Source: Opitutales bacterium
Lineage (GTDB): Bacteria > Verrucomicrobiota > Verrucomicrobiia > Opitutales > PNEW01
Assembly: GCA_965219535.1 (NCBI GenBank)
Contig: CBDCNV010000002.1
Location: 870,001-902,000, forward strand
DNA: 32,000 nt
Direction of reading: 5' to 3'
The position numbers and the translations under genes were made by a program. The notes below the pieces were generated by a model. That model saw only the letters and a program-made list of their open reading frames with translations, was not told the DNA's origin and did no database searches. Shown piece by piece: positions 9,048 to 29,184 of this stretch. Every line of letters begins with the position of its first letter. Position 1 is the first letter of the stretch.

Positions 9048-9054
9048 TATAAAA

Positions 9055-9290
9055 AATCTTCGTCTTCGTCATCGTCCAGTATAATATTAACAAGCTGAGA
9101 AAAAAAGAAAAAGAGACAAAGATGAAGAGTTAGACGAAACCCATCAGTAAGATAGATGTACGATATTTGATATACGATATGCGATCTATGAAGTAAGTTT
9201 AATACATCACAATTCAAACGTCGGATATCAAACATCGAATATCTCTTTCCCTGTTTGAAGTTTTAAAATATAATGACGAAGACGAAGATT
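9055..9290. repeat. 236-bp AT-rich non-coding unit bounded by 18-bp terminal inverted repeats AATCTTCGTCTTCGTCAT
   Basis: 9055-9072 aatcttcgtcttcgtcat and 9273-9290 atgacgaagacgaagatt are perfect reverse complements. The unit fills the phosphatase/P-loop intergenic gap. The same motif recurs at 10353-10368 and 11400-11415. Confidence 0.7.
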
Positions 9291-9291
9291 A

Positions 9292-10335
9292 TTGTGGTTA
9301 ACCATCGTCAATGATACTATTCAACATGCTATCCCTGAGATGATTGATACAAAGCTAATCCTCATAGAAGGACAACCGGGATCCGGTAAGTCCACGACAG
9401 CGCAGTATATAACTAAGCAGTGTGAAAAGAACAACATCGCGGCAAGATGGTATCACGAACAGGATAAGCAAGCGCTCGAAATATTAGATGCTCGAAGTGA
9501 TTTCTCCGAGGTAAAAATAGCTCAGTGGAAAGCGTTTGTCTCTAAAGCGAAAGAGAGTAAAAAGGTGAACATTCTCGACAGTCGATATTTAATGAACTCA
9601 GTCGGGTTTTTCTTTGCGATGGATGAAATGGCTCAGCTGGCCGAATTTGAATCCATGTGGGAGGATAGTGTTAAACCATTAAATCCCGTTTTTATCTATT
9701 TCTATCAAAGTGATGTGGAAAAATCGTTAAGAAAAACTTTCGATATTCGACGTGAAGATTGGGAAGAATGGGCATTTAAAAAAATTAACGAGGGAACCGC
9801 GTTTGGAAAGAGAAATAAATTAAAAGGTCTTGATGGCTTTGTGACCTTTTTTAAGGAGTTTCAAAAAGTCACAGACAAAATATTTGATAAATTCCGCGGC
9901 AGAAAATTAGCGATCGAAAATTCAGAAGGGGAGTGGGAGAAGTATTACGAACAGATCTCACAGTTATTAGCGTTACCCCTGATAGATGAAGAAATTCGAC
10001 CTGAAGTGGACTTGGAAATTTATGTGGGTAGATATAGAAAAGTAAACGGTGAGCTTGAATGTGAAATCGCGTTAGACGATGATTATTTATATATCTTTAA
10101 ATCTGAAGCGGACAAAATCGTAGCAAAAAAAGAAAATATACTCACCTCAATAGGTGCGCATAAGTTTTATATTAGAGAAAGACCGGATGACATAGGTTTC
10201 CAATTAAATAATGATGGAGTCGTCGATAAGATGACACGGAAAGGGGCTTGGTATGAAATTGAACAGCTGGGTCACCCGATTTCCGTCTGGGATAGAGATG
10301 CTAAAGATACAATTTTTATAAGAACTTCGGATTGA
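9292..10335 (+). CDS. P-loop NTPase/kinase-like protein with an uncharacterised C-terminal domain
   Basis: Walker A motif EGQPGSGKST near the N-terminus. The ATG at 9340 (MIDTKLILIEG...) is a more likely start than the TTG at 9292. The C-terminal ~110 aa (YVGRYRK...ECEIALDDDYLYIF...FQLNNDGVVDKM) looks like an added beta-rich domain. Confidence 0.7.
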   Translation: MWLTIVNDTIQHAIPEMIDTKLILIEGQPGSGKSTTAQYITKQCEKNNIAARWYHEQDKQALEILDARSDFSEVKIAQWKAFVSKAKESKKVNILDSRYLMNSVGFFFAMDEMAQLAEFESMWEDSVKPLNPVFIYFYQSDVEKSLRKTFDIRREDWEEWAFKKINEGTAFGKRNKLKGLDGFVTFFKEFQKVTDKIFDKFRGRKLAIENSEGEWEKYYEQISQLLALPLIDEEIRPEVDLEIYVGRYRKVNGELECEIALDDDYLYIFKSEADKIVAKKENILTSIGAHKFYIRERPDDIGFQLNNDGVVDKMTRKGAWYEIEQLGHPISVWDRDAKDTIFIRTSD

Positions 10336-10394
10336 TCTACTTTTTCATAAAAAATTTTCGTCTTCGTCCTTCCATTTATATTCTACAATAAAAA

Positions 10395-10499
10395 GGTGGA
10401 ACGCGCTGTCCCTAGCGCGTTTAAAAATGTCATAAATAAAGAAACGTGCTAGGGACCAACCTTCGCCAAGGCTATGGCTGACAGGCAGCCCGCTCCACC
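10395..10499. repeat. REP doublet (REPIN-like), long form with 30-bp loop module
   Basis: GGTGGAACGCGCTGTCCCTAGCGCGTT ... AACGTGCTAGGGAC[caaccttcgccaaggctatggctgacaggc]AGCCCGCTCCACC. The two halves are inverted copies. Each half has its own 7-bp stem around the loop TGTCCCTA. Confidence 0.85.
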
Positions 10500-10575
10500 A
10501 CATTGCTAAAATTGTAACTCTTAACACTTGATTCCTTTGACATTAGACCTTTGACTTTCGCCCCGTTTACCTTCC

Positions 10576-11262
10576 ATGAAATACGATGCGGTCATTTTTG
10601 ATTTATTCGGGACACTTGTAGATAATTTTTCTCTCGTTGGGCACGAACGAGTTCTGAAGAACATGGCATCAATATTATCAGTATCTTCTGATGCTTTTGT
10701 CCAACTAACCGTCAGTACTTTCCATGAACGGGCTACCGGCGTCTATCCAGACACTGAAGCCTTTATCCGATACGCCTGCGCTGCACTTGGCGGTAATCCT
10801 AGTGTAGAGAATATAAAATTGGCTGTTCAGATTAGAGCTGATTTCGAACTTCAATCAATGGTTCCTCGAGATGGGGCGTTAGAAACACTAAAGGAATTGA
10901 AGAACATGGGCTTTAAGATCGGTCTGATAACTAATTGTACCGCCGAAGCTCCTGATTTATGGGACCAAACGCCCTTTGATTCACTTATCGATATAGCGAT
11001 ATTTTCTTCTTCGGTCGGGCATATGAAACCAGACCCGGAAATTTATAATTTAGCCTGTGAGAAATTACAAGTGGCTCCAGAGAAATGCCTTTTCATTGGC
11101 GATGGAAGCAATAAGGAACTCACCGGCGCCACCCAAGTAGGGATGGAAGCCATACATTTACGCATAGCCGATGAAGAGCTCGAAGATGCCTATTTGATAG
11201 AAAATGAAGATTGGAAAGGAACATCTATCTCGGCATTGAAGGAAGTTTTGGAATTGGTATGA
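10576..11262 (+). CDS. HAD-superfamily hydrolase
   Basis: 228-aa ORF with motif I at the N-terminus (AVIFDLFGTLVD), LITNC (motif II region), K in HMKPDPEIY and GDGSNKEL (motif IV). Confidence 0.8.
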   Translation: MKYDAVIFDLFGTLVDNFSLVGHERVLKNMASILSVSSDAFVQLTVSTFHERATGVYPDTEAFIRYACAALGGNPSVENIKLAVQIRADFELQSMVPRDGALETLKELKNMGFKIGLITNCTAEAPDLWDQTPFDSLIDIAIFSSSVGHMKPDPEIYNLACEKLQVAPEKCLFIGDGSNKELTGATQVGMEAIHLRIADEELEDAYLIENEDWKGTSISALKEVLELV

Positions 11263-11294
11263 TGGAATATAAGTTGTAAGTAGTTGAAATAATA

Positions 11295-11369
11295 GGTGGA
11301 ACGCGCTGTCCCTAGCGCGTTTAAAAATGTCATAAATAAAGAAGCGTGCTAGGGACAGCCCGCTCCACC
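11295..11369. repeat. REP doublet (REPIN-like), short form
   Basis: Near-identical to 10395-10499 over both arms and the spacer (one a/g difference in ...aaagaaRcgtgc...), but lacks the 30-bp module. Confidence 0.85.
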
Positions 11370-11419
11370 TTAATGCTTAAAACTTTTCGAATCAAACCAG
11401 ACGAAGACGAAGATTAGTT

Positions 11420-11899
11420 ATGAATAAATCAAACACCAGTATAGCTTCCCTTTCAGGAAGAGAGTTTACCTGTTTCCCGGTGGCGCTGGTGGGATATGTT
11501 GTAAACAAAAACAAAGAATTTCTCTTTCTCAGCCGCCGGGGAGAAGACTCCTGGGAAATTCCGAGCGGTGCCATGGAGGGGGGTGAGAACACAGTCGATG
11601 GCATAATGCGCGAATTGCATGAGGAATTGGGCGATGCTATCAGGGTCAAACCCTTGGGTGTTGTTCACGCTCACACTTTTCCCTTCGACGAAAAAGTAAA
11701 AGAGATGATCAGTATTGGGTTTCTTATACAGTATCTCGGTGGAGAGATAAATCCCAGTGACGATATGAAAGGTGCAGCCTATAAATGGATGAGTTTGGAA
11801 GAAATCAGTTTAGAAAAGAATATCTCCGTGCCACGAAATAAAGGCACGCTATTTGAACGGGCAACAGAATTGTATTCATTGTGGAAAGATGAAGAATAG
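11420..11899 (+). CDS. NUDIX hydrolase
   Basis: 159-aa ORF with a complete Nudix box GAMEGGENTVDGIMRELHEELG (Gx5Ex7REUxEExGU). Confidence 0.9.
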   Translation: MNKSNTSIASLSGREFTCFPVALVGYVVNKNKEFLFLSRRGEDSWEIPSGAMEGGENTVDGIMRELHEELGDAIRVKPLGVVHAHTFPFDEKVKEMISIGFLIQYLGGEINPSDDMKGAAYKWMSLEEISLEKNISVPRNKGTLFERATELYSLWKDEE

Positions 11900-11942
11900 G
11901 TGTTAAGTTTTAAGTGTTAGGTTTTAGGTTTATTTACTTAAC

Positions 11943-13319
11943 GGTACAACCAGGACATGGTTTACAGATTTAGATCAAGACATGGTTTACACTTTGTGAG
12001 GGATGCTGAACGGTAATCGGGTTATATAGTTAAGTTAATGTTATGCGGTTTTAGAGGTTTGGCTGGCATTGTTGGGGCCGCAAGCGGCCCCAATGAAAGC
12101 AGCCGTTGAAAGGTCAATCTGACCGATTCTGAGAGTGGCAAAGTAAACATCGAAGTGTACCGTGTCTAGTGGTTTTAGTCCAACGCTCCAACCGGCGAGG
12201 GCGGTGGAGATAGGAATCTGGAAGCCATCGAGTTTGATAGACCCGCTTTTTGAGACCCGGCGAGTCATCAAATCATAGCTGATATCGGCAGGAGTGCCAC
12301 CGTAAGGATGAGAGCTGTGCTGATAGATTTCAGAGGGCGTGCTCATGGCAAGAGCCGCATGGGGGCGTTCTTCATTGAAGGTCTTGCGCCACAGATCGAA
12401 GGCCACCTGTTGGGTGCGAAGATCGTCCTGGGCATGTTTTTGCAACTCCTCTTTGATATCGCGATGGAGACGCTCATGGGCACCGTTATCCTGGGGTTTA
12501 CCCGGACGTCCACGCTCGAGATTGATCCCTAAGGCCAGCCACCAGGCCGCCAGTTTGCTCAGGCCCAGGACCGCATTGGCACTGGCAAAGGGACTGCCGT
12601 TGTCGCTGCGGATGCAAGCGGGAAGTCCATAGCGTTCAAAGAGTTTTGTGAAGCATTCACGCACCGCTTCGCTACGGGCTGAACTGAGCACCCGCACCTC
12701 TAATACATAGCGGCTCCATTCATCCCGTACCGTCAAAGGTTCACAACGGTTGCCATCAACGGTGTGCCACCACCCTTTGAAGTCTACGCTCCACACTTCG
12801 TTACAGCCACTGGCCTTGACGCTGCGGTAAAGGCGTCCGCTTTTTTGAGCGCTTCTGCGCCGACGCTTTTGCACCAGTCCCGCACGTTCCAAGACCCGTT
12901 TCACGCTCGAGTCTGAGGGGGCCTTCCCGTAACGCCTCTGGTAAAGCTCGCGGATCTTGTAGGGGCCCCACGTCGGGTGATGATGCTTGAGTTTGATCAG
13001 CGTACATACTACTGATTCGGATAGTTCCTGAACACTTCCATGCGGTCGGCGTGAGCGCTCGTGCAACCCCTCCATCCCTTCGCTCAGGAAGCGCTTCTTC
13101 CATTTATACCCTGTCGGTCGGCTGATCCCGTAGTCTTCACACAGCTCGTTCATCTTTACTCCCGGTTGCATCGATTCCAGGGCGAATTGGTATCTTTGGT
13201 CCATTTTATTTGTTTCCTTCCATGACATCATACCCCTTACTTAGCATCCTTCTTTCTTTGGCAATCTGTAAAGGATGTCCTGAACCTTTTGTGTAAAGAA
13301 TGTCTTGAACCTATACCAA
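11943..13319 (-). mobile_element. IS481-like insertion sequence (single DDE/rve transposase)
   Basis: Imperfect terminal inverted repeats (left GGTACAACCAGGACATGGTTTACA; right end reverse-complemented TTGGTATAGGTTCAAGACATTCTTTACA), each end carrying two CA[A/G]GACATnnTTTACA sub-repeats. ACTTAAC is present on both flanks (11936-11942 and 13320-13326). G+C is visibly higher than in the flanks. Confidence 0.7.
12041..13231 (-). CDS. DDE (rve/integrase-core) transposase, IS481-family-like
   Basis: 396-aa ORF. N-terminal HTH (ELCEDYGISRPTGYKWKKRF). The catalytic region carries WSVDFKG (D), IRSDNGSPF (D) and KPQDNGAHERLHRDIK (E). Confidence 0.85.
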   Translation of the reverse strand: MMSWKETNKMDQRYQFALESMQPGVKMNELCEDYGISRPTGYKWKKRFLSEGMEGLHERSRRPHGSVQELSESVVCTLIKLKHHHPTWGPYKIRELYQRRYGKAPSDSSVKRVLERAGLVQKRRRRSAQKSGRLYRSVKASGCNEVWSVDFKGWWHTVDGNRCEPLTVRDEWSRYVLEVRVLSSARSEAVRECFTKLFERYGLPACIRSDNGSPFASANAVLGLSKLAAWWLALGINLERGRPGKPQDNGAHERLHRDIKEELQKHAQDDLRTQQVAFDLWRKTFNEERPHAALAMSTPSEIYQHSSHPYGGTPADISYDLMTRRVSKSGSIKLDGFQIPISTALAGWSVGLKPLDTVHFDVYFATLRIGQIDLSTAAFIGAACGPNNASQTSKTA

Positions 13320-13386
13320 ACTTAACACCTAAAACTTAACACGCACGTAAGTGCTATCCCTTTGACTTTCGACTGAGATACCTCCC

Positions 13387-13965
13387 ATGAGTATAGAAAT
13401 AATCGAAGAATCAACGGACTCCTTACCCGACTACGGCGAAGTATCAATTGCCTTTGAAGTGAAATCTCAATTGCGAGTTGAATCGAATGATAATGGACTG
13501 GGTGGCTTTCAATTTAAAGAAGAAGAAATCAGAGAGCCCTATATAAAGGATGCAGACCAGATTGAAGGTGAGGGCCCCCTTCAATGGTCGAAGACCATGG
13601 ACACAACCCATTGGGGTGTATTATCAGCTTACGATGATTCACAAAGAGTGGGCGGTGCAGTAGTCGCTTGGAAAACACCAGGTATATATTATATGCTCGA
13701 AGATCATGATGATGTAGCCGCACTTTGGGACATTCGGATACATCCTGTTTATCGCAGCCAGGGGATAGGTTCTCAATTACTCAATCGTGTTGCTGATTGG
13801 GCGCGGGATAAGGGATGTCGATTACTGAAAATTGAAACACAAAATAATAATGTGTGGGCATGCCGATTTTATGAGCGACAAGGATGTACACTCGGAGCTG
13901 TTAATCGCGATGCTTACAAAGAATTTCCCGATGAAATTCAATTAATATGGCACCTGAAACTTTAA
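13387..13965 (+). CDS. GNAT-family N-acetyltransferase
   Basis: 192-aa ORF with acetyl-CoA motif A IHPVYRSQGIGSQLLNRVADWARDKG and a downstream FYERQGC. Confidence 0.85.
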   Translation: MSIEIIEESTDSLPDYGEVSIAFEVKSQLRVESNDNGLGGFQFKEEEIREPYIKDADQIEGEGPLQWSKTMDTTHWGVLSAYDDSQRVGGAVVAWKTPGIYYMLEDHDDVAALWDIRIHPVYRSQGIGSQLLNRVADWARDKGCRLLKIETQNNNVWACRFYERQGCTLGAVNRDAYKEFPDEIQLIWHLKL

Positions 13966-14263
13966 TTCAGGTTCGTAGCGATAATGCTGATGATTATGAA
14001 ACCATATTCACAATTGATTTCCTTTGTCATCGCGAAGTAGGCGAAACCGACTGCGGCTACCGAGTGTGAAACGCGACATCTTTCATTCCAGGGGACTGGC
14101 GTTACATTACAGAAATTTCCCTGGATTGCTGCGGCTGACATGCGGCCTCTCGATGACAAAAAAGTGCGGATACGATGGAGTAACGGGAACAGTGAAGTAT
14201 CACCCCGAATTTAATTCACTTTAAAAGAATAATCTGTATTTTTAAATGTGATTCATAATTAAA

Positions 14264-14425
14264 ATGAATTTAATACTGAACTTCCTTGGACACACTTTTG
14301 CTATTATACTAATCCTTGTCGGGATCATTTCAGCGTATATTATTTTTCTCCCCCTTGGTTTAATTCTCGAATTATACTTTTGGAGAAGGATTTTATTCCC
14401 TTATCCAAAAAGTGTCGTTAAATGA
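14264..14425 (+). CDS. Candidate 53-aa hydrophobic small protein, translationally coupled to lepB
   Basis: Hand translation gives MNLILNFLGHTFAIILILVGIISAYIIFLPLGLILELYFWRRILFPYPKSVVK*. The stop overlaps the lepB start in ATGA (14422-14425). It is too short for the ORF track. Confidence 0.4.
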   Translation: MNLILNFLGHTFAIILILVGIISAYIIFLPLGLILELYFWRRILFPYPKSVVK

Positions 14426-15123
14426 AAATAAATTACAAAAAATGGGCTCTATGGTTGTGGAAAGAATGGGGAGCCCCCCTGCTGATCGTAGCAGTTATTG
14501 TTGTCCCTGTTAAAACCAGTCTAGCCGACTGGTATTGGGTTCCGTCGGGATCGATGAACCCGACAATCCTCGAAGGAGATATGGTGTTTGTAGACAAACT
14601 TGCTTACGACTTAAAATTTCCGGTTACTTTGCACCGACTTTCAAAATGGGCGGATCCACAGCGAGGTGATATTGTTGTCTGTTTTTCACCCGATGATAAT
14701 ACCCGGCTTGTTAAGCGAATAATCGGAGTCCCAGGAGACACCGTGCAATTGATCAATAATATTCTAATAATTAATGGTGAACGGTTGGATTATTCGGAGA
14801 TGGATCCGCAATACCTTGAATATCTCTCGGACGATTTAAGACGATACGCCAATTTCGCAAATGAGAATTTGGATAGTGAGCTTCACCCTGTAATGAGTAT
14901 TCCCAGCGTCCCCGCGCGTCGATATTTTGGTCCGGTAAATGTGCCTGAAGGGCAATATTTTATTATGGGAGATAACAGGGATAATAGTAAAGATTCGAGA
15001 GTATTTGGGTTTGTCAATCGAAGGGTAATTATTGGAAAAGCGAAAGGCGTCATCGTGTCATTTGATATTAACGATAAGTATCAGCCGCGAACGAAAAGGT
15101 TCTTCAGCTCCCTTTACCAATAA
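14422..15123 (+). CDS. lepB: Signal peptidase I
   Basis: 233-aa ORF with an N-terminal TM segment, catalytic Ser box SGSMNPTILEGD, Lys box VKRIIGVPGD and the GDNRDNSKDSR box. Confidence 0.92.
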   Translation: MKINYKKWALWLWKEWGAPLLIVAVIVVPVKTSLADWYWVPSGSMNPTILEGDMVFVDKLAYDLKFPVTLHRLSKWADPQRGDIVVCFSPDDNTRLVKRIIGVPGDTVQLINNILIINGERLDYSEMDPQYLEYLSDDLRRYANFANENLDSELHPVMSIPSVPARRYFGPVNVPEGQYFIMGDNRDNSKDSRVFGFVNRRVIIGKAKGVIVSFDINDKYQPRTKRFFSSLYQ

Positions 15124-15163
15124 TAATATTCAAAGCTTTTTATTATATCCATAGTTTGAGTAA

Positions 15164-15274
15164 GAAGCGTGCTAGGGACCAACCTTCGCCAAGGCTACGG
15201 CTGGCAGGCAGCCCGCTCCACCTATCATCTTTGAATAATGCAATAAGGGTGGAACGCGGTGTCCCTACCGCGTT
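15164..15274. repeat. REP units flanking the 3' side of the RAYT gene (R-type with 30-bp module, then F-type)
   Basis: 15164-15222 is gaagcgtgctagggac[caaccttcgccaaggctacggctggcaggc]agcccgctccacc. 15248-15274 is GGTGGAACGCGGTGTCCCTACCGCGTT. Confidence 0.85.
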
Positions 15275-15318
15275 TTTTTAAGATTGAATTAATTAAAACT
15301 TCTGAATTACCCGTATAC

Positions 15319-15756
15319 TTAATACTCCAAAGTCCAAGGCCATAACTCTGGTTTCGTGCATAATCCTTTTACTACTGGATTATAACGAATATAGGTGCTT
15401 TTTAATTCAAGTTCTTTATCATTTCTAATGCGGTGATCAAAATAGTTTTCCTGCCATTTTATAAAATTATTACGATGATGGTATTTCTTCCAAATACCTA
15501 TCAAATCGCTCATGTTCTTCTCTGGATTGAAAGACAATATTACATGAAGGTGATCGGGCATCAACACGAAGAGTCGACAATACCAATTACCCTTTTCCTG
15601 ATAGTAGATAACTGAATTGAGTATTTGAATGCCGAGAGAATAATCAGTCAAGGGAGGCTTGTTTTCCTGATGACAGCGAATGCGAATATGAAAGACTGAA
15701 CCAGATCTAACCCAAGATGGTGTCTCATGATAAAGTCGTCTCGGATACCGCTTCAC
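15319..15756 (-). CDS. REP-associated tyrosine transposase (RAYT; IS200/IS605-like Y1 HUH enzyme)
   Basis: 145-aa ORF with the HUH motif MPDHLHVIL, then WQENYFDHRIRN, then the catalytic-Tyr motif YIRYNPVVKGL and WPW. REP units lie in inverted orientation on both flanks. Confidence 0.85.
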   Translation of the reverse strand: MKRYPRRLYHETPSWVRSGSVFHIRIRCHQENKPPLTDYSLGIQILNSVIYYQEKGNWYCRLFVLMPDHLHVILSFNPEKNMSDLIGIWKKYHHRNNFIKWQENYFDHRIRNDKELELKSTYIRYNPVVKGLCTKPELWPWTLEY

Positions 15757-15816
15757 TCTATTCAGTGAAAGCGGAATTGTAAGACAAATATTAAGTTAAT
15801 AATATTAATTGATGTA

Positions 15817-15846
15817 AGAAGCGCGCTAGGGACAGCCCGCTCCACC
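15817..15846. repeat. REP unit flanking the 5' side of the RAYT gene
   Basis: agaagcgcgctagggacagcccgctccacc, followed by the heptad array CCTAAC ACCTAAA ACATAAC. Confidence 0.85.
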
Positions 15847-15889
15847 TTCCCACCTAACACCTAAAACATAACACGCGCGAACGCGCCCC

Positions 15890-16582
15890 TCAATCTATAA
15901 AGTCCGTAGTAATTTCCATCAGGCTATTGCCAAGAAATTCAGCGGCTTCATCATTGGACATTGTTTCGGGTAAGCTGTCGTAATAGCGGCATTGAAATTC
16001 GACGACGGAGAAGGGTTTGGGAAGATGAAACCGGTCCCAGCTCTTCATGCGCCAGGCGTTGTGGAATTTACCGGTGATGAGAAGGACGGGTGATTTCGCC
16101 TGGCGCGCGACAAGAGCGGCGCCCGGTTTGAACTGGTAGCGCGGACCGCGAGGTCCGTCGGGGGTAATCGCGATATCGTTGCCGGCATTGATTTGATTGA
16201 CGAGCTCACGGGTTGCGGTGACCGCCCGGTAACTGCTGGAGCCGCGGATCGCCTTAAGTCCGGCAAAGGAGAGGAAGGCGGTGAGCCAGGCGCCGTCGCC
16301 GCTAGCGCTGATCAGTCCGTACATCAGCCGGTGATAGCGGTAGCGCCTAATAATTTCAGAAGCGACGAAAAGCCAGTTGTGCCAGATGATCACCACTGCC
16401 GGGATATCAGTCTTGCTGATTAATCGAATATTCTCAGGTGTGATTTTAAAGCGAAGGGTGGCACCCCATAAACGAAGAATAACACTTAAAGGCCAGAACG
16501 CCACATAGCGCCACCCAGCAATGTGTTGGATCTTCGATGTGCTTTCACTTTCCGTATCCGATGCTGCTGCTTCTTCCTGCAT
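15890..16582 (-). CDS. DUF374-family (lysophospholipid-acyltransferase-like) protein
   Basis: 230-aa ORF. SASGDGAWL, IRGSSSYR and ITPDGPRGPRYQFKPGAALVA match my recollection of the DUF374 signature. Confidence 0.65.
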   Translation of the reverse strand: MQEEAAASDTESESTSKIQHIAGWRYVAFWPLSVILRLWGATLRFKITPENIRLISKTDIPAVVIIWHNWLFVASEIIRRYRYHRLMYGLISASGDGAWLTAFLSFAGLKAIRGSSSYRAVTATRELVNQINAGNDIAITPDGPRGPRYQFKPGAALVARQAKSPVLLITGKFHNAWRMKSWDRFHLPKPFSVVEFQCRYYDSLPETMSNDEAAEFLGNSLMEITTDFID

Positions 16583-16684
16583 GGTCTAACATTTATAGCC
16601 ACAAGAGGCACAAAAACCACAAGAAAATATAACTGGAAAATCGGAAAGGGGAGGGGAAGAGAGATTAATATAGATAATCCAAAA

Positions 16685-16792
16685 GGTGGAACGCAGTGTC
16701 CCTACTGCGTTTATTACAAGTAGTAAAAAAGAAGCGCGCCAGGGACCAACCTTCGCCAAGGCTATGGCCGGCAGGCAGCCCGTCCCTCCACC
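16685..16792. repeat. REP doublet (REPIN-like), long form
   Basis: GGTGGAACGCAGTGTCCCTACTGCGTT ... aagcgcgccagggac[caaccttcgccaaggctatggccggcaggc]agcccgtccctccacc, followed by CTTTGAC/TTTTGAC/CTTCGAC heptads. Confidence 0.85.
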
Positions 16793-17928: not shown

Positions 17929-18006
17929 GGGGCAGTAGTTCAGTTGGTTTAGAACGCCGGCCTGTCACGCCGGAGGTCGCGGGTTCAAGTCCCGTCTGTC
18001 CCGCCA
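17929..18006 (+). tRNA. tRNA-Asp: tRNA-Asp (anticodon GTC), CCA encoded
   Basis: Hand-folded cloverleaf. Acceptor GGGGCAG/CTGTCCC (one G-T pair), D stem GTTC/GAAC, anticodon stem CCGGC/GCCGG with loop CTGTCAC, T stem GCGGG/CCCGT with loop TTCAAGT, discriminator G plus CCA. Confidence 0.93.
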
Positions 18007-18228
18007 AATTTTGCATTGCAAAATTTGCCCACCGTAGTCCCGCTATTGCGGGACGAAGGCTGGCCTTTCGTGATCACATACTAGCTCAGCACAACAGCTT
18101 ATTAATCACCATGCCAGTTAATGAAGAGCAAAAGGTTGTTGAATTTGGACCTTTAGATCGGTAACGCATGAATCTTAATAAGAATCGTTTAGTTTAGCGA
18201 TCATTCCTTTTGTTCGCATCATTTTTTC

Positions 18229-20206: not shown

Positions 20207-20298
20207 TTCAAGTCCCGTCTGTCCCGTCAAACTTTGCATTGCAAAGTTTGCCAGCCGTAGCTCAAAGAGCGAAGGATGGCTTTTCGTAATCATCAGCT
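20207..20298 (+). repeat. Duplicate of the tRNA-Asp 3' end plus downstream sequence
   Basis: ttcaagtcccgtctgtcccg (20207-20226) is identical to tRNA positions 17984-18003. The similarity continues through aaaYtttgcattgcaaaRtttgcc...cgaaggNtggcYtttcgtRatca. Confidence 0.85.
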
Positions 20299-20567
20299 GG
20301 TTGCGTACAACAATTTGTCCCAATTCAACCCTAGCTTACCGAAGTCTTTGCATTGCAAAGTTTGCCATCCATCTTGTCGGCCATAGCCTTGGCGATGGCT
20401 GAAGCTCGAAGAGCGAAGGATGGCCTTTCGTGACCGTCACCCAATTATGAACAGCAGGTCACCCGCTTCAACCTCTAGCTTGTCGAAGTCTTTGCTATCG
20501 CAAATTTTAAGCACCCATGTCCCCGTATAACTTCATCACCCTACACTAAAGTCAGGCGATGCCGGCC

Positions 20568-21680: not shown

Positions 21681-21780
21681 CTGATCGTATGCTTGTCATG
21701 TCGTGGAAATCTCAGGCCTTCTGCAATTGGAAGGAAAAAAATAGCAATGCAATGCGCCATAGTTTCGGCAGTTACAAAAT

Positions 21781-22140
21781 GGAAATAGGGTCAGACTGCG
21801 AATTCTTTGATTGATAAGAAACTATGGGAGGACTGGAATTGCAAGAAATGGCTCGAAAACCAAGGTATGAAAGTAACAACGGGCTCTACCACATCATCAA
21901 AAGGGGAAACTATCACCGGGATCTGTTCTATGCGGCGAAAACAAAGAAAGCTTTCAAACGGACGCTGATTAAAGCGTGCAACAGCCCGAAACGGATGGAT
22001 AGCAGCCAGGTTAAATATGGGTGAGTATAATTCAGTTAGTCACAATGTTAGTATCTTTCAGTGTGAGCAGAAGAACAGAGGTAAAGCCTACAGAACTTTG
22101 AATAAAATCAAAGAATTCGCAGTCTGACCCTTTACGTTTT
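21781..22140 (+). mobile_element. MITE-like unit A: 25-bp perfect TIR around a Y1/HUH-transposase N-terminal remnant
   Basis: TIR GGGTCAGACTGCGAATTCTTTGATT at 21788-21812, with its reverse complement at 22106-22130. The internal ORF 21824-22024 encodes ARKPRYESNNGLYHIIKRGNYHRDLF..., which is the conserved N-terminus of COG1943-type transposases. The HUH and Tyr motifs are missing. Confidence 0.75.
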
Positions 22141-23960: not shown

Positions 23961-24091
23961 TTGTTATCACTAAAATATAAAATCGCTACTTGTTAAATCA
24001 AATACGCATGTCCTCATTTTTCCCCATCTCACAATCATTGCTTCGATAATCACCATAATAATATCAAAACAATCTTCTGATAAAATAAAAG

Positions 24092-24459
24092 GGAAATAGG
24101 GTCAGACTGCGAATTCTATGATTGATAAGAAACTATGGAAGGTTTGGAATAGCAAGAAATAGCTCGAAACCATAGGCTTGAAATTAACAATGGGTTCTAC
24201 CACATTATCAAACGGGGAAACTATCACCGGGATCTGTTCTTTGCGGCGAACGGCGAAAACAAAGAGAGCTTTCAAACGGACGCTGATTAAAGCGTGCAAC
24301 AGCCCGAAACGGATGGATCGCAGCCAGGTTAAATATGGGTGAGTATAATTCGGTTAGTCAAAATGCTAGTATCTTTCGGCGTGAGCAGAAAAACAGAAGT
24401 ATAGCCGACAGAACTTTGAATAAAATCAAAGAATTCGCAGTCTGACCCTTTATGTTTTA
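24092..24459 (+). mobile_element. MITE-like unit B (decayed copy of unit A, same orientation)
   Basis: Collinear with unit A at roughly nine identities in ten by eye. The transposase remnant is broken by TAG codons and a cggcgaa tandem duplication. The TIRs are present, with one mismatch. Confidence 0.75.
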
Positions 24460-24517: not shown

Positions 24518-25279
24518 TCAGGGCTTCCGCAATTCGAAGATAATAAAGTTTGGGACCCGAAGTTCGTCATCGAGATCTGGATACAATGCCAATTGTTTTT
24601 CTGTTACAGTAGGTTCTATTATGCCTTCAATGCTAAAGCCAGCCTCTAAAAATCCATTGATGTAGGTAGACAAGGAGCGGTGGTAATTAGTAAGGGGGCA
24701 GCTCCTCCATTTCCAATGGCGTCCCCCTTCGTCAAAGTAGTCATCCAGAATTACATGCTTTTTCTCACCGTCCTCTGTCTTAAGCCATACGCCAGCAGCA
24801 GACCGCATGGGGTGTAAGTTAGCTATGATGAACCTTCCCCCGGATTTCAGTATTCGATAAACTTCGATCGTATTTTCATTATGGTTTGGCAGGTCACACT
24901 GATTTAAATAGGACACCGCAAGTTCAAACGAGTTGTCTTCAAGAAAGCTCAGGTCCTGGGCATCGGCAAGACGGTATTCATCACGCTCTGTTTGCAGTTC
25001 TTTCGCAGCTTCAATCATGGGTGCGCAAAGATCGATGCCCAGCACGTAGGATGCACCCCGTGTTGAAAGCATTCTTGAGAATCGGCCTTCACCACACCCG
25101 CAATCGATGACACTGAGGCCTTCTACATTCCCGCAAACACCCAGCATAGATTCATCGAGCAAACCTTTGCGATGGGTATTTTTGCCTTCTCTGGCTTCTT
25201 TGATCCAGCTTGGAGCCATGTCATGCCATTCATTATTAATATCATCCCTTTTCATCTCACTCATTTCGCTTTCTAGCAC
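24518..25279 (-). CDS. Class I SAM-dependent methyltransferase
   Basis: 253-aa ORF with motif I VIDCGCGEGRFS, and post-I GIDL. The start is probably one of the internal Met codons (25264 or 25255), given the overlap with the upstream gene. Confidence 0.85.
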   Translation of the reverse strand: MLESEMSEMKRDDINNEWHDMAPSWIKEAREGKNTHRKGLLDESMLGVCGNVEGLSVIDCGCGEGRFSRMLSTRGASYVLGIDLCAPMIEAAKELQTERDEYRLADAQDLSFLEDNSFELAVSYLNQCDLPNHNENTIEVYRILKSGGRFIIANLHPMRSAAGVWLKTEDGEKKHVILDDYFDEGGRHWKWRSCPLTNYHRSLSTYINGFLEAGFSIEGIIEPTVTEKQLALYPDLDDELRVPNFIIFELRKP

Positions 25280-28947: not shown

Positions 28948-29184
28948 TTACTCTCGGTGATCGGGGGCCCGGCAAGCGCAATCGATGACACTGAGGCCTT
29001 CTACATTTCCGCATTCACCCAGCATAGATTCATCGAGCAAGCCGTTGCGATGAGTATTTTTGCCTTCTCTGGACTCTTTGATCCAGTCTGGAGCCAAGTC
29101 AAGCCATTCATTATTAAAATCATCCCTGTTCATCCCACTCATCATTAGGCATTCAATCTCAAAAAGCAGATACAATTGTTCCAA
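28948..29184 (-). pseudogene. Truncated N-terminal fragment of a methyltransferase paralog
   Basis: 28985-29144 aligns at nucleotide level (about nine in ten by eye) with 25100-25264. The protein MSGMNRDDFNNEWLDLAPDWIKESREGKNTHRNGLLDESMLGECGNVEGLSVIDC|ACRAPDHRE breaks exactly at SAM motif I (VIDCGCGEG in the intact copy). Confidence 0.85.

Follow-up and report, generated by a model that had tools for sequence, protein, structure and literature searches.

The DNA analysed here (the window) is a stretch of 32,000 nucleotides from an uncultured Opitutales bacterium of the Verrucomicrobiota (assembly GCA_965219535.1, contig CBDCNV010000002.1, positions 870,001 to 902,000), in which short hairpin repeats of the repetitive extragenic palindrome (REP) kind lie around a gene predicted to encode a REP-associated tyrosine (Y1/HUH) transposase, or RAYT. 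Ten REP units were recognized (Table 1), nine of them within 10.4–16.8 kb and every one between open reading frames (ORFs), and they account for most of the intergenic repetition in their part of the window. The unit consists of a GGTGGA head, a 7-bp stem and an 8-nt loop (TGTCCCTA), the last A of the head being also the first base of the stem. An earlier reading made from the sequence only (the sequence-only reading) had written the unit as GGTGGA followed by AACGCGC, which counts this A twice; because the base is shared, a literal pattern of GGTGGA, seven free positions and the loop matched nothing relevant, whereas the corrected 27-mer, allowing up to three mismatches, gave four matches in the window and none in 100 shuffles. 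This search and direct reading placed the units where the sequence-only reading had put them, including a decayed copy that it gave as 998–1046 and that we delimit as a decayed long unit at 995–1057, with an extra TGTCCCTA remnant beside it at 985–992.

Two types of unit, L and R, were distinguished. The three stem variants of the L units differ on both sides and are Watson–Crick throughout, as had been claimed, and the partner R units are weaker, as had also been claimed, with six of seven pairs formed and pair 5 occupied by a G.A or G.G mismatch (five pairs and one G.T in the long R unit at 10443). Single-unit DNA folds ranged from −8.0 to −9.5 kcal/mol for L units (−9.5 kcal/mol, z = −3.8, for that at 10395–10421) and from −6.7 to −7.5 kcal/mol for R units. 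The sequence given for both short R units (11343–11369 and 15820–15846) is GGTGGAGCGGGCTGTCCCTAGCRCGCT. The loop, described earlier as invariant, is not so in the long R units, where an insert of about 30 nt splits it (TG[CCTGTCAGCCATAGCCTTGGCGAAGGTTGG]TCCCTA). The repeat reported at 15164–15274 is present, as a head-to-head pair rather than as one unit, and the units at 15248 and 15820 stand on either side of a transposase gene that had been overlooked.

That gene is flanked by the units at 15248 (+) and 15820 (−) in inverted orientation, both with the GGTGGA head distal to the gene, and the window holds this single RAYT copy against ten hairpin units. Its product has the HUH motif (H69-L-H71), a catalytic tyrosine (Y122) and the motif WQENYFDHRIR. 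It scored 24.7 bits with Pfam Y1_Tnp (cut-off 23) and 18 bits with the NCBIfam IS200 model NF033573, far under the cut-off of 55. A search found 264 homologues, mostly from Verrucomicrobia and many of them carrying the JGI name ‘REP element-mobilizing transposase RayT’, and in an alignment of 21 sequences H69, H71, Y122 and the WQ..FDHRIR motif were invariant. The sequence match to Escherichia coli TnpA-REP (PDB 4er8) had E = 8.6e-5. The AlphaFold model (pLDDT 90.3) found as its top structural match in the PDB 4er8_A, a RAYT bound to a REP hairpin (E = 1.7e-8, TM 0.74, 21% identity), followed by the IS200, IS608 and ISDra2 transposases. With the HUH motif and catalytic tyrosine present, ORF 15319–15756 is thus, judged by sequence and modelled fold, an intact RAYT gene. 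The ORF is also intact in two public contigs (L001 and L002; loci from related genomes or metagenomes are numbered with an L), around 14747–15181, yet it is absent from the gene calls there, which have ORFs of 45 aa and 64 aa instead. An exact look-up of the product returned no gene on record, and the public copies of the locus were reached via the neighbouring HAD hydrolase gene; RAYT is missing from the protein collections of the organism because the gene calls omit the ORF. An intact RAYT gene has therefore been overlooked by public annotation of the locus.

Table 1. Positions in the window of the REP units, their doublets, the RAYT gene and the module nested in REP loops.
Feature	Position	Strand	Description
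Decayed long unit	995–1057	−	GGTGGAACACTGG..nested module..TCCCTACCGCGTT; 72% identity
L-type REP unit	10395–10421	+	GGTGGAACGCGCTGTCCCTAGCGCGTT; stem AACGCGC/GCGCGTT; left arm of doublet
Long R-type REP unit	10443–10499	−	about 30-nt module in loop; right arm of 105-nt doublet 10395–10499
Tail-to-tail REP doublet, 75 nt	11295–11369	+	L unit 11295–11321, 21-nt spacer, short R unit 11343–11369 (−)
L-type REP unit	11295–11321	+	GGTGGAACGCGCTGTCCCTAGCGCGTT; exact second copy of 10395–10421
Short R-type REP unit	11343–11369	−	GGTGGAGCGGGCTGTCCCTAGCACGCT
Long R-type REP unit	15166–15222	−	nested module; head-to-head with L unit 15248, 25-nt spacer
L-type REP unit	15248–15274	+	GGTGGAACGCGGTGTCCCTACCGCGTT; stem AACGCGG/CCGCGTT; downstream of RAYT gene, head away from gene
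RAYT gene (REP-associated tyrosine, Y1/HUH, transposase; predicted)	15319–15756	−	145 aa, GTG start
Short R-type REP unit	15820–15846	−	GGTGGAGCGGGCTGTCCCTAGCGCGCT; upstream of RAYT gene, head away from gene
REP doublet	16685–16792	+	L unit 16685–16711, spacer, long R unit 16741–16792 (−)
L-type REP unit	16685–16711	+	GGTGGAACGCAGTGTCCCTACTGCGTT; stem AACGCAG/CTGCGTT
Long R-type REP unit	16741–16792	−	nested module; degenerate head GGTGGAGGGACGGGC
Nested module	1013–1042, 10457–10486, 15180–15209, 16747–16776		inside REP loops of the window
Module, free-standing	20375–20401		window
Module in relatives	L008, L013, L018, L039, L045, L055, L091, L104, L110, L112, L152, L165, L180

Stem covariation and linkage to RAYT genes

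Public genomes, one per species, were scanned with the pattern GGTGGANCGNNNTGTCCCTANNNCG, which imposed no base on either side at stem pairs 2, 5, 6 and 7, nor on the 3′ side at pair 1. The scan yielded at least 109 stretches and at least 132 strict units, falling into 35 types among the matches listed, and the carriers were at least about 50 species-level metagenome-assembled genomes (MAGs), almost all of them Verrucomicrobiota (Opitutales, Chthoniobacterales, Udaeobacter and others). Among the matches listed, Chthoniobacterales MAGs have mostly TCGCGA/TCGCGA stems, high-GC Opitutaceae MAGs have ACGCGT/ACGCGT and GCGCGT/ACGCGC, and the clade of the window has ACGCGC/GCGCGT, ACGCGG/CCGCGT and GCGGGC/GCACGC; the unit types of the window itself recurred in Opitutales MAGs, OY829953.1 and CBDANS. 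When each of the 35 listed types was counted once, two-sided changes were seen at all four free pairs, pairs 2 and 7 used all four Watson–Crick pairs, and the covariation score was 0.452 compared with 0.131 ± 0.022 for shuffled sets, a value reached in none of 500 shuffles; every register-shifted control scored 0.171 or less. With copies counted over the at least 132 units, 615 of 660 cells (93%) of the unconstrained pairs were Watson–Crick. Compensatory pairs are thus in excess across the listed types and the stem positions do not vary independently, which supports the earlier proposal of a selected hairpin. The same data bear on whether the palindrome could be the double-stranded operator of a dimeric regulator, a reading that the inverted repeat, the fixed 8-bp centre and the intergenic location would suit. 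Covariation contradicts it: all four base pairs occur at two half-site positions, which is unsuited to a dimer that reads sequence, and in addition neither the centre nor the head is symmetric, and units are also found downstream of genes and where two genes converge. We rejected the operator and give it next to no credence.

Linkage to RAYT genes was measured in 80 metagenome loci picked solely by RAYT protein homology, the related genomes being seen as 8-kb pieces. Within 350 nt of RAYT, 171 of 240 GGTGGA sites were hairpins with at least six of seven pairs, compared with 11 of 144 at more than 1 kb, and the density of GGTGGA hairpins was 3.34 per kb near RAYT and 0.059 per kb away from it (57-fold); 58 of the 80 loci had such a hairpin within 350 nt of the gene. 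A hairpin scan that was blind to the head also returned GGTGGA as the commonest 5′ flank, with GGTGGG, GGTGGT and GGTAGG as minor variants. The k-mers abundant in RAYT flanks (GGTGGAAC and GGTGGATC) share a conserved head and stem start, and the loops differ (TGTCCCTA, GACCTCCGGG, TTGTCCTCAA and TTCTCCGAA were seen beside RAYT homologues). As read, the flanks contain GGTGGA hairpins with diverse stems and loops, mostly two unit types that form inverted doublets to either side of RAYT; REPs also bracket RAYT in L192, L193 and L194, and this layout is shared by a Pelagicoccus isolate in culture and by an Acidobacteriota MAG. The GGTGGA head is conserved in all the RAYT relatives sampled, from Verrucomicrobiota and Kiritimatiellales to one Acidobacteriota MAG (where it is GGTGGG).

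A second REP–RAYT–REP cassette, on another contig from the same metagenome sample (L192, 3088–3793), matches the window at 15161–15847 with 90.7% DNA identity over 707 nt and 92% identity of the protein. Its neighbours are unrelated (SGL and an MFS transporter) and the homology begins precisely at a REP head, that of the 15820 unit; the cassette could be a paralogue, the copy of a related strain or a cassette that has moved whole. As a separate observation from outside the Verrucomicrobia, a Thermoanaerobaculaceae (Acidobacteriota) MAG (L194, 2187–2950) has tandem inverted pairs of GGTGGG-headed REPs with a 209-bp period before its RAYT homologue, an array that resembles a cluster of bacterial interspersed mosaic elements (BIMEs).

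REPs of E. coli also have RNA-type roles. The hairpins described here might similarly be selected mainly as RNA (intrinsic terminators, stabilizers of mRNA 3′ ends or RNase barriers) with RAYT incidental, a partial rival that may coexist with transposase recognition and that we hold to be unlikely as the main explanation. Besides being intergenic throughout, the units often come right after a stop codon, TTTTTTT comes after the L unit at 15248, and a terminator scan flagged the hairpin at 10400–10421 on the − strand; this was the only REP hairpin flagged, terminator-like sites in the region (14) were not in clear excess over shuffled sequence (9.4 ± 3.2), and a T-run is missing at most units. 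Di Nocera et al. (PMC3733652) report frequent G-T pairing in GTAG REPs and suggest an RNA function. Here G.T and A.C mismatches were alike rare (8 and 11, respectively, of the 660 cells among the matches listed), a symmetry that shows no strand-specific tolerance of wobble and is in keeping with a DNA hairpin, or both strands, being under selection rather than one RNA strand; the conserved mismatch of the R units, G.A or G.G, is also non-wobble. An RNA role leaves unexplained the one-sided head, the inverted doublets and the 57-fold clustering around RAYT. In a search of Rfam only tRNA reached gathering scores, with a chance-level miRNA match (E = 0.6) over one doublet.

The doublets bear on what is copied. 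Positions 10391–10456 and 11291–11356 are 97% identical across the spacer as well, which fits the idea, from REPINs (REP doublets forming hairpins), that the doublet with its spacer may be what is copied, the copies seen per genome being few. The 75-nt doublet (folded over 11293–11371) consists of two inverted REPs with a short spacer and folds into a single long hairpin, as a REPIN does (−24.7 kcal/mol, z = −7.8, on the + strand; −26.4 kcal/mol, z = −10.0, on the − strand). About 100 doublets of 68–127 nt were seen across the related loci: in the clade of the window they are arranged tail-to-tail, measure 75 nt and have a 21-nt spacer whose consensus is loose, and elsewhere their length is fixed per lineage at about 92 or about 110 nt. 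Head-to-head pairs recur with a conserved 25-nt spacer, the 15166/15248 junction being found also in L192 at 96% identity, and single (unpaired) units are common across the loci.

The inverted termini of the doublets would also be expected if they were miniature inverted-repeat transposable elements (MITEs) mobilized by a DDE transposase such as that of the IS481-family element at 11900–13342, with GGTGG/CCACC as their terminal inverted repeats. An IS481-family transposase is indeed encoded only 0.6 kb off, and the 22-nt end of the element adjoins REP heads at several sites. Against this, the ends of the insertion sequence (IS), GTGTTAAGTTTTAAGTGTTAGG, are unrelated to the REP sequence, the doublets of the window are without target-site duplications, single units are common, covariation within an arm is unexpected for double-stranded terminal repeats, and the association across the family is with RAYT genes. 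The MITE reading was rejected on the unrelated IS ends and the missing target duplications, and we consider it highly improbable. The IS481-family element itself has a transposase ORF at 12041–13231 (−) and 25-nt inverted ends. Solo 22-nt ends of it (CTTAACACYTAAAACTTAACAC) abut REP heads (TCCACC) in the window at 1063–1084, 11369–11385 and 15853–15874 and also in L035, L056, L091, L094 and L110, which suggests insertion beside REPs or a composite repeat.

A probable REP–RAYT system and its proposed recognition

We consider it very probable that the uncultured Opitutales bacterium (Verrucomicrobiota) of the window carries a REP/REPIN–RAYT system, or ‘REPtron’, because a RAYT gene lies among the repeats, the stems covary and hairpins are enriched at loci anchored on RAYT. 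The intact gene, the covariation and the RAYT–REP linkage were observed directly, as were the anatomy of the repeats and the near-identical duplication of a doublet. The same three lines of evidence lend support to the earlier suggestion that the hairpin is a substrate of a Y1 transposase. By analogy with E. coli TnpA-REP, RAYT would be a monomeric HUH/Y1 nuclease-transposase that binds the extruded single-stranded DNA hairpin, cleaves it and mobilizes REP units in trans. It would read the head base-specifically, the stem merely having to pair, and since head and loop are fixed while the stem is free but paired, the RAYT of this clade probably reads the loop too. Under such recognition stems would drift by compensatory change, with the head fixed in RAYT relatives and the loop fixed in the genomes that carry the motif. 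By cutting and rejoining single-stranded DNA, for example at replication forks, the protein would place copies of doublets at further intergenic sites. For TnpA-REP of E. coli, base-specific binding of the GTAG head and recognition of a bulge in the stem have been described, and head mutations abolish cleavage (PMC3479197). Recognition would split cleanly into a head that is fixed everywhere sampled, a loop that is fixed in the motif-carrying Verrucomicrobiota and a stem of which only pairing is asked. More tentatively, the GGTGGA head kept in all the RAYT relatives sampled, next to stems that covary freely, might be read as a natural mutational scan of recognition in this RAYT clade.

Several points weigh against the REP–RAYT interpretation. 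On the NCBIfam equivalog model NF047646 (REP_Tyr_transpos) RAYT scored 78.1 bits (E = 6e-22), which is 1.9 below the curated cut-off of 80; we read this shortfall as reflecting a divergent clade rather than as exclusion. E. coli TnpA-REP makes no contact with the loop, so that the solved complex leaves the conservation of the loop unexplained (PMC3479197), and the exact loop TGTCCCTA occurs beside RAYT relatives in 3 of the 80 loci, the wider family keeping the head only. It should also be noted that the counts of RAYT genes and REP units cover the window and the 8-kb pieces, and that the sole further copies of the locus, L001 and L002 (long ENA metagenome contigs), at 99.98–99.99% identity, are too like the window for presence/absence polymorphism of the doublets to be scored.

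Comparison with known REP–RAYT and IS200/IS605 systems

REP–RAYT systems are known chiefly from Proteobacteria; the kind of element found here is ordinary and already described, and it is the host phylum that is little studied. REP–RAYT systems, BIMEs and REPINs have been well described (PMC2817692, PMC3116915, PMC3333891, PMC3479197, PMC5581495). As with the REPs/BIMEs and TnpA-REP of E. coli (PMC3333891, PMC3479197, 4ER8), inverted REPs stand on either side of a small HUH/Y1 gene, REPs of two types take alternating orientations (y and z in E. coli, L and R in the window), a conserved single-stranded 5′ head stands at the foot of the hairpin, and the stem of one unit type is imperfect. The window differs in its head (GGTGGA rather than GTAG), in its shorter units with a 7-bp stem, in the perfect stems of the L units and in the conservation of an 8-nt loop that the E. 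coli protein leaves untouched (PMC3479197); similarity between the two proteins is weak (E = 8.6e-5 by sequence and 21% identity in the structural alignment), as for a separate RAYT clade.

The one-sided 5′ GGTGGA head is a GTGG variant of the GTAG type, and GTGG and GGTGG heads have been reported in Pseudomonas and Stenotrophomonas by Nunvar et al. 2010 (PMC2817692). Closer to the present host, Di Nocera et al. (PMC3733652) describe REPs of Opitutus terrae in which the GTAG head is mutated to GTGG, and state that most families contain sub-families that differ by alternative complementary residues in the stem. As described there, the families GTAG-17 to GTAG-20 of O. terrae resemble the units of the window in their Verrucomicrobia host, their head-to-head and tail-to-tail dimers and their complementary-stem sub-families, and differ in having many intragenic copies, of which the window has none; this comparison is by description. 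A literature search that paired REP with Opitutus found no paper. The system is therefore of a known kind, GTGG-headed REPs having already been described in O. terrae.

The REPIN–RAYT systems of Pseudomonas (PMC3116915, PMC5581495) are similar in that an inverted REP doublet with its spacer appears to be the repeated unit, that REPINs flank RAYT, and that RAYT gives the impression of one resident gene and not of a multicopy IS; they differ in host phylum and in that the head motif here is conserved across the RAYT relatives sampled. With IS200/IS605 elements (IS608, ISDra2) the modelled RAYT shares the HUH/Y1 fold, and the window system can be likened to their transposases, which read subterminal single-stranded hairpins with a short guide 5′ of the hairpin and act without target duplication. 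Unlike these elements, the window has hairpins dispersed without a gene, and it lacks a left-end/right-end structure and tnpB.

A module nested in REP loops and other repeats of the window

The insert found in the loop of the long units itself behaves as a hairpin, whose 14-nt loop (RTAGCCTTGGCGAM) is conserved and whose stem varies by changes on both sides; its stem covariation was 0.387 compared with 0.198 ± 0.034 in shuffled sets, and this value was reached in none of 500 shuffles. An alternative fold, GCCTT-GGCG-AAGGC, which would make the module a miniature GTAG REP, was unsupported (0.098 against 0.102). The module is the sole large difference between the doublets at 10395–10499 and 11295–11369, which are otherwise 97% identical. 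It occurs in the loops of both L and R units, its position in the loop differs in distant lineages, and a chimeric form has a different left flank (TTCGGCTGAGCTCATCGAAGTCC). A tentative and on balance doubtful explanation is that the module is a separate element, small and independent, which inserts into the single-stranded loops formed by REP hairpins, so that one repeat lives within another.

Other repeats of the window were noted in passing. The 3′ end of a tRNA-Asp gene and the adjoining downstream sequence (17929–18006; 17984–18037) are repeated 2.2 kb further on at 20207–20260 (54 nt, 91%). Between the two copies lie a gene for a methyltransferase and a small gene with an SOI domain, and the segment has the appearance of a small element that integrated at the tRNA; after the second tRNA-Asp-derived copy, a 98-nt repeat stands in two tandem copies (20254–20495). 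The motif GACGAAGACGAAGAT and its complement recur intergenically at 9052–9072, 9273–9293, 10350–10368 and 11400–11421, some copies lying just upstream of starts (for example 11400–11421, before the ATG at 11420). Long direct repeats (21776–22140 and 24087–24458; 25099–25264 and 28977–29142) are 89–94% identical over 164–208 nt, and with them occur perfect 26-nt inverted repeats (AGGGTCAGACTGCGAATTCTTTGATT) at 21787, 22106, 24098 and 24424, which are unrelated to the REP family.

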